IMG/VR virus record: IMGVR_UViG_3300020045_008547
Coordinates: 1-29,641 of that record
Direction: 5' to 3' (one strand)
Length of the DNA: 29,641 bases
Source: a virus
Taxonomy: Duplodnaviria; Caudoviricetes
The stretch's first letter is position 1. Each line of letters opens with the position of its first letter. The position numbers and the translations under genes are program-made. Positions 6,465 through 26,267 of this stretch are shown here, piece after piece. Below the pieces are notes generated by a model that was not told where the DNA came from, searched no databases, and saw nothing but the letters and a program-made list of their open reading frames with translations.

Positions 6465-6890
6465 TTACTTCACACCGGTAGAACCAAAGCCGCCAACACC
6501 GCGCGCCGTAGCGGGCAGTTCGTCCACCAGGTCGAACACCACGCGGGGTACCTTGACGAGGATTGCCTGCGCGATGCGGTCACCAGCGCTCCAGGAGAAC
6601 ATTTGCGTGGTGGTGAACAGCATGAACAGTTCACCGCGGTAGTCGCTGTCAATGAGGCCGTACCCGTGTGGCACACCAGCGCCGTACTTGGCGCCGTGAC
6701 CAGAGCGCGCACTGATCAGCATGCCGTAACCCTCGGGCACCGCCACAGCGCAGCCCAACGGGACTTTGGTGACCTTGCCCCCGGTTGCAGCGCCAGCCTC
6801 GATAGCGTGCAGGTCGAAGCCCGCCGCGCCGTCTGTAGCGAAGCGAGGCATGATGAAGTTGGGGTGGAGGGCTTTGATTTTCAGTTTCAT
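6465..6890 (-). CDS. dut: Trimeric dUTPase
   Basis: AGFDL, RSG, GLIDSDYRGEL, RIAQ, RGVGGFGSTG. Confidence 0.95.
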   Translation of the reverse strand: MKLKIKALHPNFIMPRFATDGAAGFDLHAIEAGAATGGKVTKVPLGCAVAVPEGYGMLISARSGHGAKYGAGVPHGYGLIDSDYRGELFMLFTTTQMFSWSAGDRIAQAILVKVPRVVFDLVDELPATARGVGGFGSTGVK

Positions 6891-6899
6891 GGTTTGCTT

Positions 6900-7175
6900 T
6901 CAGAGTGAAGGTGGTGGGAGGATGGCGTCAATTTCGGCGGGGGTGCTGAAGACGTAGACTGTGATGCTAGAAGCACGCAACAGTTCGTGCTCGCGCGCTT
7001 GGCCGGGGCGTGGCTTTTCCCCAGGCCTCTTGCATTCGGCGTAGAAGGATCGACCGGGCAACAACACCAGGTCGTCAGGGGCGTTGTTACGACCGACCCA
7101 GTTCAGGCGCCGGTACGTGCCGCCGAGGGCTTTCACGCGGTCGTGCAGGTATTTCTCTATCTCGTTTTCCCTCAT
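6900..7175 (-). CDS. VRR-NUC domain nuclease
   Basis: MRENEIE..., APDDLVLLPG, AECKRPG..PRPGQ. Confidence 0.9.
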   Translation of the reverse strand: MRENEIEKYLHDRVKALGGTYRRLNWVGRNNAPDDLVLLPGRSFYAECKRPGEKPRPGQAREHELLRASSITVYVFSTPAEIDAILPPPSL

Positions 7176-7732
7176 TTTTTGTTCCTTTGGACGTAGTGTT
7201 TGATCTTAACCATGTGTGCAACCTGAAACTGCGCGTCGGCCAAAGCTGTGTGCGCAGAATCCCCTTTGCTCTTAAAGTCGTACTCGACCGCTGGGTACCA
7301 GTTCCGCAGGGTCCGAAAATCCCTCTCCCGGCTCCAGTTCCAGGGGCGCTTGATGCCAGCGCGGTCATAGGCCCCGCCGAGAATGGCAAGGTCGAAGTTC
7401 GGCGAGTTACACCATATGCGCACGTCTTCATGGCGGCAAGTCTCCAAGATAAAGTCTGAGAATTCTTGCAGGACAGTGTGGATGTGCCGCCCGCCGAACC
7501 GCACCGCATTGCGAGCGGCGTCCGACTGACCCAGCCAGAACAGGAACGTGCCCGGGTCGATGTTGCCTCCGTCTTCGCAAGACGACCCAAGGTGAATGGT
7601 CTGTTGAAAAGTCGGACCTGTGGTTTCGGTGGCGAGGTCAAACCAAATTGCACCTATCGACATCAGCGCGCCGTTCGGAGGCAGGCCTGCTGTTTCAGTA
7701 TCGAGCATCAGGTCAAAAAATTGTGTTGTCAC
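7172..7732 (-). CDS. DEDD-family 3'-5' exonuclease (DUF5051/Rv2179c-like)
   Basis: MLDTET, NSPNFD..IL, PW...RDFRT, HTALADA. Confidence 0.88.
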   Translation of the reverse strand: MTTQFFDLMLDTETAGLPPNGALMSIGAIWFDLATETTGPTFQQTIHLGSSCEDGGNIDPGTFLFWLGQSDAARNAVRFGGRHIHTVLQEFSDFILETCRHEDVRIWCNSPNFDLAILGGAYDRAGIKRPWNWSRERDFRTLRNWYPAVEYDFKSKGDSAHTALADAQFQVAHMVKIKHYVQRNKK

Positions 7733-8235
7733 AGTGTGTTTCCTTCGTGAAGTTTGCGTTTTGCTTTTAGGTAAGCGGCGTGCGCGAGTTCGGGGGTTTT
7801 AAATTTCCCAATGAATTGATTTTTTCCTTTTGTTTGGATTGCGGCTTTGAACCCACCCCGGCCCAAGGTTGAGACTCCTAACAAACCGGATTGGTTGTCA
7901 ACCCTCGCCTTGCGTTGGTTAGTAGTGTTCACCTGATGCGTCACATCCCGCAAGTTGCGCCACTTATTGTTGGCTCGGTTTCCGTCTTTGTGGTCAATCG
8001 TGTTGACGGGCCACGCGCCAGTTTTTATCGCCCAAATTATTCTGTGGACCAGATAGTTGCGCCCACGAAATTCCAATTGGAGGTACCCATTTCCGCGTTG
8101 CGATCCGCACTCCGATCCAGGTGCGACTCTCCCTTTTGGCTTGACCCAAATCAATACGCCCAGTCGAGGTTTATAGGCAAAGATTTCTCTTGCCTCAGCA
8201 ACCGTCATTGGTGTTTTGTCTAGTCGTTTTCCCAT
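7729..8235 (-). CDS. HNH homing endonuclease with C-terminal AP2-like domain
   Basis: YLVHRIIW, IDHKDGNRANNKWRNLR, N.SG..GV...FIGKFKTPELAHAAY. Confidence 0.9.
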   Translation of the reverse strand: MGKRLDKTPMTVAEAREIFAYKPRLGVLIWVKPKGRVAPGSECGSQRGNGYLQLEFRGRNYLVHRIIWAIKTGAWPVNTIDHKDGNRANNKWRNLRDVTHQVNTTNQRKARVDNQSGLLGVSTLGRGGFKAAIQTKGKNQFIGKFKTPELAHAAYLKAKRKLHEGNTL

Positions 8236-10214
8236 TATCTTGCCCCCAAGGATTCGAGCATGCTGTTCGTTTCACGGATGTACCAGCCGTAGTCGATGTC
8301 GCTCGGCAACTCGTCGGGCATGCTCATGAGCGGGACTGCGCCGTCACTCATGGGCACCTTACTGCGGCCACCTTTTTCATTCAGTTTGCTGTAGCGCAGT
8401 GACCCGCTTTCACCCTTACCGTAGTACCAGCGCACGACCTTCCCCAAGTAGTAGAACTGGTCCTCGCCACAATCCATTCGATACGCGGCCTCTACATCCA
8501 GCGGACCTTCTAGGTTGATGAAAGCGTGGTCGAACCGCGCCACAGCTAGTGCTCCAGGCACAACAACTTCCCAGCCATTTTTAATCAGAGCAACGCGCTT
8601 GCCACCCGGCGTCAGGCTATCGTCATACAGCGTGTGCGTCACCTTGATCGCCCCGCCGCGCACTGTTCGCACGGTTACGAACTTTCGCACATCAGTGCAA
8701 CGAAATATTGTTTCAGCAACAGGTGTGCCGTGTTCAAGCCACGCACACGCAGCCTCCACACAAATATACGTCTGCGGATTCTTGCTGATAGAAGGTTCGG
8801 CAAACGCACCCTTGCCCTTGTAGCCACCCTTTTCCTTGAGCGCGACATAGTTGTTGATGTCGCGGCTGAATAGCGCCTTGTACTGGGTTTCCTCAGTCTC
8901 AAAACCAGTCTGCTTTTCCCATGCAGCGATGATGGCGGCGAGTCCGTCTTTGCGCGAGCGCAGGCAACGTATCACGATGCCGTCGGTGTTGGCCGATACA
9001 ACCGATATACCTGCCAACTCCAATGTTTCAATCAGCATGAGCAAGACAAGCTGGCCTGTCACGGTAACTTGGATAAGCAAGTCGGGTGCGTACAGGATCG
9101 AGTATTTGCTGCCCAACTTTCCGAACGCCCCGTTAACCACAATCTTCAGCGCGTCGGCCACAACCTTGTTGCCATTCGCTTTCGCTTCAACACGGATCAG
9201 GACGATGCGCCGATAAATTTTCAGGAACGCTTCGGTCAAATGCTTGGGGAACAGTGAGCACAGCAACACGATCCACGGATAGAAGCTGACCACATCGCGG
9301 TCCAGAAGCATGTAGTCTTCGTCTGCGTAGTGAGCCACACGCGACTCGCTGCTGTGCAAGCCGCCTATGCCCATTCGGTACACGCTCTTGCCGATGCGAA
9401 CGTCTGCGTTTGCCAATGCTGGTGGTTCAACGGGTGCCCCGCTGTGGTCGATCACAAACGACGACGCCTCGATTTCTGCCAGCTTTTTCTGCAACGCCTC
9501 GGTTTGAAATTTGATGAACTTTGGCGCGACGTATTTGAACGTGGTGCCAGGTGGAATGTTAGGCTTACGAGGCTGTTCACCGAGGGCTTGAGTAAGCTGT
9601 TTTTTGATGACCGCTTCTGCGATCTGCGCATCAGATTTGGAACGCAGGTCTACGTCGTAGTCCTTGGTCATCTGTTCGCGCAATTTGATCTGTGGAGCCA
9701 AGTGATTGAACAGATCGATGGTCGCAACCAAGTCGCTGTTGCCGCAGTAGTCGCGCAAGTCAGCACGCTGTTCCACGGTGATGTCGGCGCTGGGATCGAT
9801 AGGTAAATCCTGGAGACGCTTGGAATGCAGGCGACCGGCGTATAGCTTCAGCGATCCTTGGCCGAACGCAACCTCAATCAGGTCGATGTGGTCAACGTAG
9901 CTTGGCACCTTGACATTGAACTGTTGCTCAAACTGCCAGTTGCGCAACTGACCCACGATGATCGCATCGCTGGCCTCTTTCAACTTCGCGCAGTCAGCAC
10001 CAGTCAGCGCCAACATCAGTATGCACATGTCGTAGCTGTTACCGTTGAAAGTGACAACCTTGTACTCGCGCAGGATGCGTTTTATTTCCATGATGTTCAA
10101 CTTTTGACCGTCGAACATTTCATAGTATCGCACCGCATCGCCGTCTACTTTTCGGAACATGACCAGAAAATAATTCCGGTAGCACTCGATGTCCATTGCT
10201 AAAACAGTTTTCAA
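8235..10214 (-). CDS. Phage DNA polymerase, family B-like, with 3'-5' exonuclease domain
   Basis: DIECY, TFNGNSYD, YCGNSD exonuclease motifs; DVVSFYP, KIVVNGAFG, ANTDGI polymerase motifs; TTG start. Confidence 0.9.
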   Translation of the reverse strand: MKTVLAMDIECYRNYFLVMFRKVDGDAVRYYEMFDGQKLNIMEIKRILREYKVVTFNGNSYDMCILMLALTGADCAKLKEASDAIIVGQLRNWQFEQQFNVKVPSYVDHIDLIEVAFGQGSLKLYAGRLHSKRLQDLPIDPSADITVEQRADLRDYCGNSDLVATIDLFNHLAPQIKLREQMTKDYDVDLRSKSDAQIAEAVIKKQLTQALGEQPRKPNIPPGTTFKYVAPKFIKFQTEALQKKLAEIEASSFVIDHSGAPVEPPALANADVRIGKSVYRMGIGGLHSSESRVAHYADEDYMLLDRDVVSFYPWIVLLCSLFPKHLTEAFLKIYRRIVLIRVEAKANGNKVVADALKIVVNGAFGKLGSKYSILYAPDLLIQVTVTGQLVLLMLIETLELAGISVVSANTDGIVIRCLRSRKDGLAAIIAAWEKQTGFETEETQYKALFSRDINNYVALKEKGGYKGKGAFAEPSISKNPQTYICVEAACAWLEHGTPVAETIFRCTDVRKFVTVRTVRGGAIKVTHTLYDDSLTPGGKRVALIKNGWEVVVPGALAVARFDHAFINLEGPLDVEAAYRMDCGEDQFYYLGKVVRWYYGKGESGSLRYSKLNEKGGRSKVPMSDGAVPLMSMPDELPSDIDYGWYIRETNSMLESLGAR

Positions 10215-13153: not shown

Positions 13154-14092
13154 TTAAAAAAGATCGTCATTTAGGCCGGTGTTAGGGACACCTTCCGAAC
13201 CCACGTCATCAAAACCGTCAGTGCTTGACACCGCTGGTCTTGGGTCTGTTTCTAAGGCGATGACCGGTTGGCCTCGCTCTTGTTTAATCAATGCTTCCAG
13301 GCGCTTCCACTGGGTTGGACCAATCAGTGGGTCAGGCTTGGGTTCACCCTTCTTCACACGCTTAACCTTGGTGAACTTTTCCAGTTGCGCTGGGCTGCTG
13401 AGAGAGCGCTGGTACATGACACTTGCACCCAAGCGCATGCGTTCCATGTGGTCTTCAGCAACTGTCTCGTTTTCCCAGTAGCGCCGACCCATGCGCCCGT
13501 CAACGAACTTATAGCCTATGCCGTCGGGGCGCTCGACACGGTTGCCCTCACTCAGGCGCTCACGAAGGCGTTGGCTGACAGCGGAGCACCAGTCCTCCAC
13601 CATGGGTATCAGTGAGTACAGCGTGCCGAGTTGGTGGTCCTTGACCGGGGCGGGCTTTGCAGTTTCAAGGTCGTCAAAACCTTCGACTGCCAATTCCATG
13701 ACTCGCTGCGTTTGGGCAGCGCAGTCGCCCGATGCACGGCAGAAGTGGCAGGCATCTGGTGACGGCACGAACTGTGGGTTGCTGCGTGTTTCCTCGGCCT
13801 TCAGCGCCAGGTAGTCGCGTACTTCCATGAGTTCCGCAATCGTGCAGGTGTACTCACTGATATGGTTGACGAACGGCTGGATGATGGTCATTGACACAAA
13901 ATCCCAGTCGTAAAACAACCCGTATTTTTCAATGGCTCCGAGGGCATACGCTGCCATTTGCAGGTTGGCCCGACGCTTTTCGGGAATGCGCTTGCCTGTC
14001 ACGAAACAGTCGCGCTCGGGCTCAATAATGTCGTAGGCGTCAACCTTGTTGCGCCCGAATTTGAAATCAGCGATGCGGAGTGTGCGTGCCAT
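13154..14092 (-). CDS. DUF2800/Cas4-like PD-(D/E)xK exonuclease, C-terminal part
   Basis: IADFKFG, NLQMAAYALG, IIQP, CHFCRASGDC, GYKFVDGR..R.W, SPAQLEK. Confidence 0.85.
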   Translation of the reverse strand: MARTLRIADFKFGRNKVDAYDIIEPERDCFVTGKRIPEKRRANLQMAAYALGAIEKYGLFYDWDFVSMTIIQPFVNHISEYTCTIAELMEVRDYLALKAEETRSNPQFVPSPDACHFCRASGDCAAQTQRVMELAVEGFDDLETAKPAPVKDHQLGTLYSLIPMVEDWCSAVSQRLRERLSEGNRVERPDGIGYKFVDGRMGRRYWENETVAEDHMERMRLGASVMYQRSLSSPAQLEKFTKVKRVKKGEPKPDPLIGPTQWKRLEALIKQERGQPVIALETDPRPAVSSTDGFDDVGSEGVPNTGLNDDLF

Positions 14093-14541
14093 TAGAGAAT
14101 CAGTATGTCAGTCGTGCCGCTGGCACCTTCTTCGCCGGTGAAATGCCCAATGGGCACGCTTTGTTCAGCCAGCAACTCACCGCCGTGCAGCCGGTGCATT
14201 TCAAACACGTAGTCGGTGGCGGCGCCGACTGCCTCAATGTGGTCTTCGGTGACTGTGATTTCAGCCACGACCTTCGCGCTCAGAGGCATCCTGCCGTAGT
14301 CGTCGGCCCAGTTCTCACCTGAGCCATCAGTCTCATGCGTCCAAAACAGCATGATGCGCCCGAGGTAACTGGTTGGGTCTACCCCGAAGCGCACCACTTC
14401 CTCGGCCATCTGGTGACACATCGTGCCCTCCCGGCTGTCGGGGCTCGACTCATTTGGGCGACCACGCTGCGCCGCCACCGACGCGGTGCACGTAGTCCAT
14501 TGCGCCGCCCCGGAGGGCGATAGTTCAGCGTGGTAGCCCAT
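14092..14541 (-). CDS. DUF2800/Cas4-like exonuclease, N-terminal part
   Basis: HAELSPSGA.QW..C, EGTMCH, AEQSV, GTTD; joined to the C-terminal part by TAATG. Confidence 0.85.
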   Translation of the reverse strand: MGYHAELSPSGAAQWTTCTASVAAQRGRPNESSPDSREGTMCHQMAEEVVRFGVDPTSYLGRIMLFWTHETDGSGENWADDYGRMPLSAKVVAEITVTEDHIEAVGAATDYVFEMHRLHGGELLAEQSVPIGHFTGEEGASGTTDILIL

Positions 14542-20868: not shown

Positions 20869-21059
20869 CAAATCAACAGCATTACCTCTGGGCACTGCTA
20901 GTCGCCTCCGTTGGAAACGCGATCATCGGTCTTTACTTCGGTTTATCCATAGGGTTGGCAGACTGCGCGAACCGCGGGTCGATGAAAACTGCCATACTCG
21001 CCAAACCGGTCAAGTGTGAATGGGTTAAGCCAGATGATGCAGCTAGTCCTACCCCTTGA
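20865..21059 (+). CDS. Small membrane protein
   Basis: ATGA overlap; one TM helix. Confidence 0.6.
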   Translation: MTNQQHYLWALLVASVGNAIIGLYFGLSIGLADCANRGSMKTAILAKPVKCEWVKPDDAASPTP

Positions 21060-21378
21060 CGGCCTGTGCAACGGCCCTCTGTTCGCACCAGCGCGCAAGA
21101 CCAGGTTGCCCAAACAGAAGGCGCGCGGTTGGCGCTGGTATCGGTCGCGCAACGCCAAGGCTACCCCCGCCTGGGCCAGCCGGTGGAAAATGGACCTGAT
21201 GTACGCCACCGCCCGCGTCCTGGGCGAGACGGTCGATCACATCGTGCCTATCAACCACCCGCTGGTCTGCGGTTTGCACACGGAGCACAACCTGCAACTG
21301 CTGCCTGCCGCCGAGAACACGGCCAAGGGCAACCTGTGGTGGCCCGACATGCCAGAGGAACAACTCACCCTCTTGTGA
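21034..21378 (+). CDS. Small HNH endonuclease
   Basis: ATPAWA, VDHIVPI..PLVCGLH..HNLQLL...N..KGN; start uncertain. Confidence 0.8.
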   Translation: MMQLVLPLDGLCNGPLFAPARKTRLPKQKARGWRWYRSRNAKATPAWASRWKMDLMYATARVLGETVDHIVPINHPLVCGLHTEHNLQLLPAAENTAKGNLWWPDMPEEQLTLL

Positions 21379-21402
21379 AACCCATTTAGTAAAGACTATA
21401 AT
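21373..21402 (+). promoter_or_regulatory. Promoter for a probable leaderless transcript, overlapped by an operator (21385-21400)
   Basis: TTGTGA-18 bp-TATAAT; ATG begins 7 nt after the -10; no SD. Confidence 0.7.
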
Positions 21403-21409
21403 ACCGTGC

Positions 21410-21673
21410 ATGTCGAAACCCGAAACCATCACCCCGCTGCTGACCATCCTACGAGCCCTGGAGAACGACGCTCGCCGGGACGAGTTTGCGGCGCTCGCTG
21501 GCACGTCTCGGATGTACCTCTACCAACTGGCCGGTTGCCACAACCAGTCGTGCCGCTCTACCCTGGCCGGAGCTATTGAGGACGCCAGCGTGAAGATGCA
21601 TACCAAGTACGGCACGCCGAAGATCACCATGCGTGAGTTGGCCACGATGTGCCCGCTGCCCAGTATAAAGTAG
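21410..21673 (+). CDS. Cro-like HTH transcriptional regulator
   Basis: RDEFAALAGTSRMYLYQLAG...LAGAIEDAS; stands alone between a promoter and a terminator. Confidence 0.8.
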   Translation: MSKPETITPLLTILRALENDARRDEFAALAGTSRMYLYQLAGCHNQSCRSTLAGAIEDASVKMHTKYGTPKITMRELATMCPLPSIK

Positions 21674-21691: not shown

Positions 21692-21716
21692 GACGGCCTT
21701 CTGGCCGTTTTTCTTT
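21692..21716 (+). terminator. Intrinsic terminator
   Basis: ACGGCC-TTCT-GGCCGT followed by TTTTCTTT. Confidence 0.8.
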
Positions 21717-21726
21717 GCAAATTCTA

Positions 21727-21756
21727 TTTAGCGATCGCTAAAAGATCGTGTACACT
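21727..21756 (+). promoter_or_regulatory. Promoter of the primase operon with a perfect palindromic operator (21727-21742)
   Basis: TTTAGCGATCGCTAAA palindrome over a weak -35 (TTAGCG), 17 bp, -10 TACACT. Confidence 0.65.
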
Positions 21757-21803
21757 TTCCCCGCCAGCCCTTCAGAAATTTCCCCATAAAACCCCGCCGC
21801 AAA

Positions 21804-21882
21804 GTTGTTAGGCGAGGGTCTGCCACTCCCTATTTTGCGTAGGGTGCGGGCTGGCGCTTTGGGCAGACTCTCACCTCACAAC
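21804..21882 (+). ncRNA. Candidate CI/C4-like antisense RNA
   Basis: Long stem 21804-21824/21862-21882 closes two hairpins (loops TTTTGCG, GGCTGG); complementary targets at 21762-21770, 21798-21803 and 21900-21907. Confidence 0.7.
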
Positions 21883-21908
21883 GCAGTGATTTGAAAGGTC
21901 GCCAGCCT

Positions 21909-22208
21909 ATGATTTCCCCAGAAAAATTCCCCTGTACCGCTTGGCTATACAACAACGGCAAGGTGCGCCAGGCGATCCTCACCGAGTTCGCAGGTCGCAA
22001 CAACATGCACGTCCGTGCGAGAGTCGATGACACTCCGTTCCACATCCTAAACCTTCAGTACCTTTTCGATTCGCCAGAGGCCGCTATTGCCGCAGAGGTC
22101 GAGACTGCGAACCTCGAGTGCCAGCGGCTTCGAGGGTTGTTGCGTGACGCTGAAGACCGGAGGCACGCGGCCATCTTGTTGCAAGCTGAAATGCAGAGCA
22201 AAGCCTGA
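21909..22208 (+). CDS. Hypothetical protein (probable paralog of the next gene)
   Basis: AAAGG RBS, ATG 21909; MISPEKFPCTAW. Confidence 0.75.
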   Translation: MISPEKFPCTAWLYNNGKVRQAILTEFAGRNNMHVRARVDDTPFHILNLQYLFDSPEAAIAAEVETANLECQRLRGLLRDAEDRRHAAILLQAEMQSKA

Positions 22209-22525
22209 TGTTCGCCCCGCGAGAATTTCCGTGCGCAGCATGGGTGTCGTATCTGGACACTGACCAAATGGAGGTTGTTGTCATGCCGGTGACTCTGCTG
22301 GGCTACGGCGGTGCCACCAAGAGCTACGTGACCATGGAAAGCGATGCACCTCTGCACGAAGACCTGATCCAAGAGACACAAGCCGCCGCTATCCAACGGG
22401 TGGTCGGCCTCCTGGCTGGGATCATTGAAGGTCGAACCCCCACTCTCCACCACCTGCGGGACGGGCTCTTGCCCGTGCATGCAGCGCTGGTTTCAAGGTT
22501 GGCAATTATGAAAGCAAAATCATGA
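22208..22525 (+). CDS. Hypothetical protein (probable paralog of the previous gene)
   Basis: TGATG coupling; MFAPREFPCAAW. Confidence 0.75.
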   Translation: MFAPREFPCAAWVSYLDTDQMEVVVMPVTLLGYGGATKSYVTMESDAPLHEDLIQETQAAAIQRVVGLLAGIIEGRTPTLHHLRDGLLPVHAALVSRLAIMKAKS

Positions 22526-25109: not shown

Positions 25110-25111
25110 AC

Positions 25112-25271
25112 GGGGTACAGGTTTTTCACTCTTATGTACCCCTTGTACCCCGTGTACCCCGTTGTTTGTTATTAAAGGTCTGGATGTTGTGAGATTGTGT
25201 ATGTTGCAGTGCAGTATGTGTCCAGCCACCTCCAATAGGATTTCAGGGGGTACAACGGGGTACGGGGTACA
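25112..25271. repeat. Inverted iteron arrays (TGTACCCC / GGGGTAC[A]), putative replication origin
   Basis: TGTACCCC at 25135, 25144, 25153; GGGGTAC(A) at 25112, 25247, 25257, 25264. Confidence 0.75.
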
Positions 25272-25300
25272 GAGAGAGTTGGCACCCCGCCGGAAATTAG

Positions 25301-26106: not shown

Positions 26107-26183
26107 AATTGAAAACTGGACGGGCGACCCTCCCCACCCCTAGGGGTTGAATTCAAAAATGGATGGGCGACCCCTCCCACCCC
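26107..26183 (+). repeat. Imperfect 34-bp direct repeat with a palindrome at the junction
   Basis: 26107-26140 vs 26150-26183, 29/34 identical; ACCCCTAGGGGT at 26136-26147. Confidence 0.8.
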
Positions 26184-26267
26184 CGGTGTTTTTCATGACC
26201 TGGTGGTCCGGTGGAAATTCCTGAGCGCCGGAGAAAACGGGGGAGCACTGGGCCGTGAAAATTCGAG

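Follow-up and report, generated by a model that had tools for sequence, protein, structure and literature searches.

The window analysed here is a Caudoviricetes record of 29,641 nt, the record being 66% complete, and genes for a DNA polymerase, a helicase and nucleotide metabolism are present in it. The features discussed below are collected in Table 1. They run from the gene for an 87-residue protein, through an intergenic leader, to a chain of three small reading frames that ends in a primase-helicase gene. The 99-, 105- and 123-residue frames and the 739-residue primase overlap by 1 or 4 nt at each junction, and these overlaps suggest that translation is coupled along the chain from the first reading frame to the primase. 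The 87-residue protein gave no Pfam or PHROG match. By its position it is probably Cro-like, and in relatives its gene faces a divergent PHROG-12107 repressor gene.

Table 1 Features of the leader and of the neighbouring genes in the window (boxes A, B and A' are sites complementary to the RNA words L1 and L2; P1 and P2 are helices)
Feature	Position	Strand	Remarks
87-residue protein gene	21410..21673	+	Marker for finding relatives; 26 proteins at E<=0.001, including itself
Terminator-like hairpin, ACGGCC/GGCCGT and T-run	21693..21716	+	Identified by reading the sequence; folds at -14.3 kcal/mol
Palindrome TTAGCGATCGCTAA over the -35 region	21728..21741	.	Putatively operator-like
-10-like hexamer TACACT (leader promoter)	21751..21756	+	Predicted start near G21763
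Upstream box A, CGCCAGCCC	21762..21770	+	Complement of L2; predicted 5' end
Linker from box A to box B	21771..21797	+	G-poor: 42 G in 540 linker bases, 34 members
Upstream box B, CGCAAA	21798..21803	+	Complement of L1; abuts the stem
Predicted 79-nt RNA	21804..21882	+	21-bp stem P1 closing hairpin P2 and the junction strand
Stem P1, two arms	21804-21824 with 21862-21882	+	11-bp inner core, then single mismatches C-A and U-C, 3 bp apart
Hairpin P2	21828-21844	+	Loop UUUGC, or UUUUGCG if the closing U-G opens
Loop L1 of P2, UUUUGCG	21833..21839	+	
Junction strand L2, GGGCUGGCG	21848..21856	+	Pairs with boxes A and A'
Shine-Dalgarno (SD)-like GAAAGG	21893..21898	+	Kept in most members
Downstream box A', CGCCAGCC	21900..21907	+	Complement of L2; between SD and start codon
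First reading frame, 99 residues	21909..22208	+	Function not assigned; stop overlaps next start
Second reading frame, 105 residues	22208..22525	+	N-terminus similar to that of the first
Third reading frame, 123 residues	22522..22893	+	Ead/Ea22-like; PF13935, E 8e-7; -4 overlap on each side
Primase-helicase, 739 residues	22890..25109	+	Prim-Pol and VapE-like domains; PF09250, PF05272, PHROG 256

An earlier first-pass annotation, made from the letters of the window, had described this leader as a candidate antisense RNA switch, and the positions it assigned all agree with the sequence. It proposed a long stem closing two small hairpins. The long stem is indeed present in the fold of the 79-nt piece (-40.0 kcal/mol, z -4.5), but it is missing when the complete 185-nt leader is folded to its minimum energy (z -2.78, 0/200 shuffles), box A being paired with L2 instead. 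The two states are therefore close in energy, and in roughly half of 34 members they lie within about 5 kcal/mol of each other. Hairpin P2 is borne out, while the second hairpin (21846-21857) has only 3 bp and is better regarded as a junction strand.

The complementarities on which the proposal was built are also there. The junction word GGGCTGGCG (21848-21856) is perfectly complementary to 21762-21770, where the transcript is predicted to start, and its part 21849-21856 is the complement of 21900-21907, the site between the SD and the ATG; CGCAAA at 21798-21803 is likewise complementary to 21834-21839 in the other loop. That loop had been given ACGCA as another target. This site, which overlaps the last two bases of the stem, can form a 6-bp duplex in the window, but a similar site is found 3' of the stem (at most 25 nt away) in only 13/35 members, and in none of the loop variants. 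An 8-mer that occurs twice around its own complement arose in 5/5000 dinucleotide shuffles of the leader and in 18/2946 tiles of the window, all of the latter coming from only two places.

Relatives were gathered by means of the 87-residue marker protein together with one DNA pattern, and are cited below by locus (L) or genome (G) number. The profile gave 38 loci with 28 distinct sequences, and the alignment used for covariation (n=28) consists of 27 full-length sequences and L253, which came from the pattern scan. A strict DNA pattern found nothing, and looser patterns returned mostly chance loci, L253 being the only addition among the matches listed. A covariance model of the RNA, run over 151 genomes of one bacterial family, found only the seed itself, and a plasmid search gave no match. 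In 50,697 annotated phage records, the one match to the window leader was Acidovorax phage ACF1, with 71% identity over the RNA and the downstream box and with the same gene order; the leaders of L157, L112 and L110 had no true match there.

The covariance model matches distant relatives weakly, and a distant clade keeps the layout with different words. For this clade, 80 loci were reduced to 55 distinct marker-to-primase intervals, which were scanned with a detector that used no sequence, only architecture. It found the element in 35/55 intervals, against 0 when the complementary strand of these 60,434 bases was scanned; the members found in this way had been selected for L1:box B and L2:box A pairing. 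Applied loosely over 6.26 Mb, the detector returned 77 distinct candidates, many of them due to chance, and it was kept only in its marker-to-primase form. A profile search of 40 loci without a detector match yielded one new element, L480, in which L1:box B is kept and box A is poor. The total is 62 distinct cores, which measure 64-92 nt (median 74.5 nt). In the first set the element occurs in 23/36 marker-to-primase intervals; it is absent from 13/36 and, in the distant clade, from 20/55 (one recovered later), the absences including phage PCA1, where repressor, marker and primase are all present. Rfam has no match at the element, either in the window or in 20 loci of relatives, most of which hold the element, and no description of it was found in the open literature, taken without the supplement of PMC5737381 (c4-2) and the large files of PMC10690425. 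The element is real, conserved and uncatalogued in Rfam.

Covariation of the stem and of the loops with their targets, on which the first-pass annotation had staked its proposal, was found across the homologous leaders. Stem P1 forms 17-20 of 20 pairs in 28/28 members, with two-sided changes in 18/20 stem pairs. Its covariation score was reached by 0/500 column shuffles, its pairing is 92.5% against 34-47% in slid controls, and RNAalifold finds both P1 and P2 unaided. The 6-bp core of L1:box B is paired in 28/28, with two-sided changes in L084, L144, L094 and L089. For L2:box A, 195/196 cells are paired and G-C is replaced by A-U in 8/28; for L2:box A', 193/196 cells are paired, and C-G is replaced by U-A in five members and by U-G in two of the 28. 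The variants in this alignment were reached via the marker gene, not via complementarity. The members are related, so that the cell counts overstate the number of independent events; the change from G-C to A-U falls at several places on a short marker tree (which leaves out L253, a locus without the marker) and less clearly so on the RNA tree.

Over the 62 cores there are about a dozen unrelated L1/box B word pairs. Cognate L1:box B duplexes have -8.6 kcal/mol and swapped ones -4.3 kcal/mol, the detector-found members having been selected for this pairing. The detector ignored box A', and 24 of the 31 cores new from it have a box A' duplex at p<=0.05, as do 48/62 overall; the duplex is not significant in 14/62, including L139, L109, L110, L111 and L494. 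Box A' ends 0-5 nt 5' of the first start codon in 27/28 members and 11 nt from it in L139. A U-run of at least five follows the stem in 12/62, including L109 and L110, both of which are without the downstream box.

The promoter of the leader, which had been placed at TACACT, falls below the threshold of the promoter scan and was hence not listed by it. The placement of the hexamer is nevertheless kept in 35/35 members, where it lies 5-8 nt 5' of box A and thus sets box A at the predicted start; the T, A, A and T of the hexamer are invariant in 27 aligned leaders. Further upstream, the hairpin at 21693..21716 is likely to end the upstream transcript, and the consensus scan gave no terminator entry there. 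Many homologous promoters have palindromes similar to that over the -35 region. It is worth adding that the operator-like form TT[AC]GC...GC[GT]AA is seen at several promoters, in the window (21728-21741) and in L085, L087, L120 and L157, among them the promoters that serve the Cro-like gene and leftward operons.

The chain of genes behind the element is conserved in form. The first reading frame overlaps the next start by -1, -4 or -8 in 55/62 cores, and the chains reach a long reading frame wherever the contig permits, with breaks in L102 and L139. Eleven long frames were scanned, of which ten have primase/helicase domains or none (L087, a fragment) and one is a methylase; the type of primase at the end of the chain differs among relatives. 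The first frames belong to many unrelated families. At L110:5221, L112:6955, L184:1429, L253:5070 and about 10 other loci, the frame after the RNA has only 9-17 codons, overlaps the start of the next gene (primase where checked) and resembles a dedicated coupling peptide. An N-terminal motif, M-x-x-P-x-x-F-P-C-x-A-W, is common to the first two frames of the window (21909-21944 and 22208-22243) and is present in the first frames of ACF1, L120, L124, L157, L125 and others, the remainder of these proteins being divergent. In L085, the first frame and the primase are separated by a 929-residue frame (6850-9639), inside which is another frame bearing HNH_3.

The leader had been likened to the P4 CI, P1/P7 C4 and N15 CA RNAs. 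The covariation, and the primase operon with its overlapping stop and start codons, uphold the likeness, but the element is not a member of the C4, isrK or c4-a1b1 families. Scanning with Rfam gave the window element no C4 (or related) score, while the controls P1, P4 and N15 score as C4 (RF01695) with 69-79 bits and have isrK or c4-a1b1 upstream. A covariance model of the leader element, in turn, gives no score on the P1, P4 and N15 RNAs. Judged by its layout, the element would work like C4/CI, and it is not a member of that family.

The resemblance to P1/P7 C4 extends to a long basal stem, a three-way junction and a size of about 77 nt, the third helix of the element being weak. Of the two antisense words, the first is located in a hairpin loop and the second in the junction strand that follows this loop on its 3' side; both are single-stranded and complementary to upstream sites in their own precursor. 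The nested order is also that of P1 (a1 < b1 < loop b' < junction a' < a2), and the downstream target precedes a small reading frame, which in P1 overlaps the next gene by 4 nt. In the available text of PMC5320573, changes in the C4 words define specificity, and in that of PMC12197685 and PMC5320573 C4 blocks translation at the ribosome site. There are nonetheless clear differences. P1 c4 has an arm with a UUCG tetraloop, whereas the first hairpin of the element itself carries the variable antisense loop. The upstream boxes of C4 are structured (c4-a1b1, RF03163, or seqA/isrK), and those of P1 are 81 and 66 nt away, whereas those of the element lie in unstructured sequence that runs from the predicted +1 to the stem. 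Downstream, C4 has both a2 and b2, whereas the element has one conserved box, for the junction word, at the start codon. P1/P7 C4 precedes an antirepressor, and the element a primase. With regard to the RNase P processing of C4 at the base of its stem, the stem of the element starts with G at +1 in 25/35 members and with GGW, the reported C4 start, in 2/35, and there is no 3' RCCA.

Like the element, P4 CI belongs to the leader of an operon whose final gene encodes a primase-helicase, and it has complementary sites upstream and downstream. Rho takes part in the termination in P4. According to the accessible parts of PMC4825925 and PMC10111431, P4 CI stops the expression of replication genes by early termination, and the former describes this as occurring by pairing with seqA and seqC. 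Unlike the leader element, P4 CI scores as C4 and P4 seqA as isrK; P4 CI lies inside a gene, whereas the element lies in the intergenic leader of phages of 45-63 kb with their own DNA polymerase. The N15 CA RNA (immA) is likewise a small leader RNA before small reading frames, but it scores as C4, has an upstream isrK-type element and precedes an antirepressor operon. IsrK of Gifsy-1 (RF01394) is a short RNA that acts on its own mRNA in trans by way of a translationally coupled small reading frame (PMC4825925), as the element may do; unlike the element, it is a 5' terminated piece and an activator, and there is no isrK match at the element. ARAGORN found 0 tRNA or tmRNA genes in six loci.

Two exposed stretches of the element covary with boxes in its own message, which points to a likely small RNA that shuts off further copies of the message. 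We consider it fairly probable that the element is a C4/CI-like negative-feedback RNA that represses its own leader in trans, the 79-nt piece being likely released from the leader by processing. In a naive cell, box A would pair with L2 while the leader is being made, so that L2 is kept off the ribosome site and the operon is expressed; in 33/34 modelled transcripts cut before the 3' arm, box A:L2 has a probability of at least 0.97. Some leaders would be trimmed to the stem-closed RNA, and once this had accumulated, its L1 and L2 would capture boxes B and A of new transcripts. The L2 of the new transcript, or of free RNA, would then cover box A', the coupled chain would stay untranslated, and the transcript would end early, by Rho or, in some members, at the U-run 3' of the stem. 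The outcome would be a negative-feedback timer on the replication genes and, where the RNA comes from a prophage, immunity against phages that share its words. Box B abuts the 20-bp stem and L1 is at the opposite end of it; from this geometry, the two would pair only if the stem were open or if two molecules took part. Covariation does not fix the direction of control: the SD/box A' region is also open to pairing with the 3' end of the stem (-4 to -14 kcal/mol), so that the box A state could be the 'off' state.

The same pairings could serve a folding switch that acts only in cis, in which the boxes hold L1 and L2 co-transcriptionally and delay the long stem, no free RNA acts, and the outcome is set by transcription speed, by ribosomes or by a protein. 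Boxes A and B do form nested pairs with L2 and L1 while the 3' arm is still to be made, and the near-equal energies of the two whole-leader states fit such a switch. So does the local nature of the targets: with crude start calls, other start sites show no enrichment of the boxes, and there was no support for loops that target ribosome sites at large (77 sites against 88.6 expected for the box A type and 446 against 391 for the box B type). To such a switch, however, a dozen interchangeable address words would bring no obvious gain, whereas self/non-self recognition would gain from them; stem length and total size are held near the 77 nt of C4 (median 74.5), and no input signal is apparent. 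We therefore rate control in cis alone as rather unlikely.

The fact that the 3' arm can also cover the SD gives weight to control in the opposite direction, in the manner of Gifsy-1 IsrK, which activates its own mRNA in trans (PMC4825925, available portion). A free RNA would bind boxes A and B, the stem would close and the SD be freed, giving positive feedback towards lytic replication. In most members the arm can pair with the SD/box A' region, which is weakly folded when the stem is closed. This activation seems improbable, as the covariation of L2 with the start-codon box predicts a block once L2 is freed, the U-run after the stem in 12/62 predicts termination on stem closure, and the arm:SD hairpin differs in register and strength. 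Least probable is an element acting as DNA, such as an origin or a single-strand priming hairpin, or else a simple hairpin that serves stability or a nuclease. The element does adjoin the primase gene, and both strands fold well, but the plus strand has the more stable fold in 30/35, G-U pairs recur on the plus strand in the stem and in L1:box B, the position of the boxes follows that of the promoter and the start codon, and a separate repeat cluster 3' of the primase is a better origin candidate.

The gating of replication, or immunity, by such an RNA had been linked to the lack of a CI-type repressor in the window. That lack is confirmed, but an argument from it to immunity has little force, since the element is found both in relatives that have a CI-like gene and in relatives that do not; the RNA thus neither replaces a repressor nor depends on one. 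In ACF1 and many carriers, the marker gene stands opposite the divergent PHROG-12107 repressor gene, and the proviruses, in which L088, L087 and L253 lie, have a divergent repressor gene as well. In G004 the repressor gene is reduced to a remnant. No repressor gene was found in the window, in G003 (60,000 of 63,118 bases read) or in G005 (whole). In the window an HNH-like gene (21049-21410) stands before the Cro-like gene, where relatives have the divergent repressor, and L084:5453-5629 is a fragment of a repressor gene. The repressor missing from the window and the mere fragment in L084 suggest repeated loss.

In G003 and G005, both near-complete carriers, neither a repressor nor a tyrosine integrase was found, which argues against lysogenic immunity as the only role of the element. 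A tyrosine integrase was found in 1/5 records searched. The integrase protein search had no positive control; a serine recombinase search gave 1/5, below the cut-off, and a ParB search 0/4. ACF1 is reported to have an integrase (PMC8851203, available part). Four sequencing runs compared with L088 gave long contigs of flat depth, possibly DNA.

Phage immunity mediated by RNA is represented by a single Rfam family, C4, which covers P1, P4 and N15. In the element, the C4/CI logic would be built on another scaffold, directly 5' of a primase operon and in large phages that encode a polymerase themselves. It is conceivable, though on balance doubtful, that it represents a second, independently evolved class of self-addressed phage RNAs, in which a fixed scaffold carries two freely rewritable words and defines replication-incompatibility or immunity groups among tailed phages without a protein repressor. 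The primase would then be gated by ribosome blocking or by termination, and the RNA would be a clock or a superinfection brake in phages without a repressor. If the RNA acts in trans, the dozen or so natural address words would provide a test of loop-box self/non-self recognition between phages and could serve as a collection of small, mutually orthogonal switches of translation. Such action would also explain how primase expression is limited in phages that have lost their repressor.

Several other features were noted in passing. Just 3' of the primase gene, at 25110-25275 of the window, direct and inverted GGGGTAC/GTACCCC repeats are clustered, forming a candidate replication origin; long inverted repeats also occur in L095, L103-L105, L110, L161 and L184. 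A direct repeat (ATGGGCGACCCCTCCCACCCC-like) lies at 26112-26195 of the window, 3' of the late-activator gene, and L431:6930-7330 (provirus G001) holds a tandem array of units of about 24 nt. At 13154-14541 of the window, a PHROG-69 exonuclease is split over two consecutive minus-strand reading frames (14092-14541 and 13154-14092), which overlap by stop and start.
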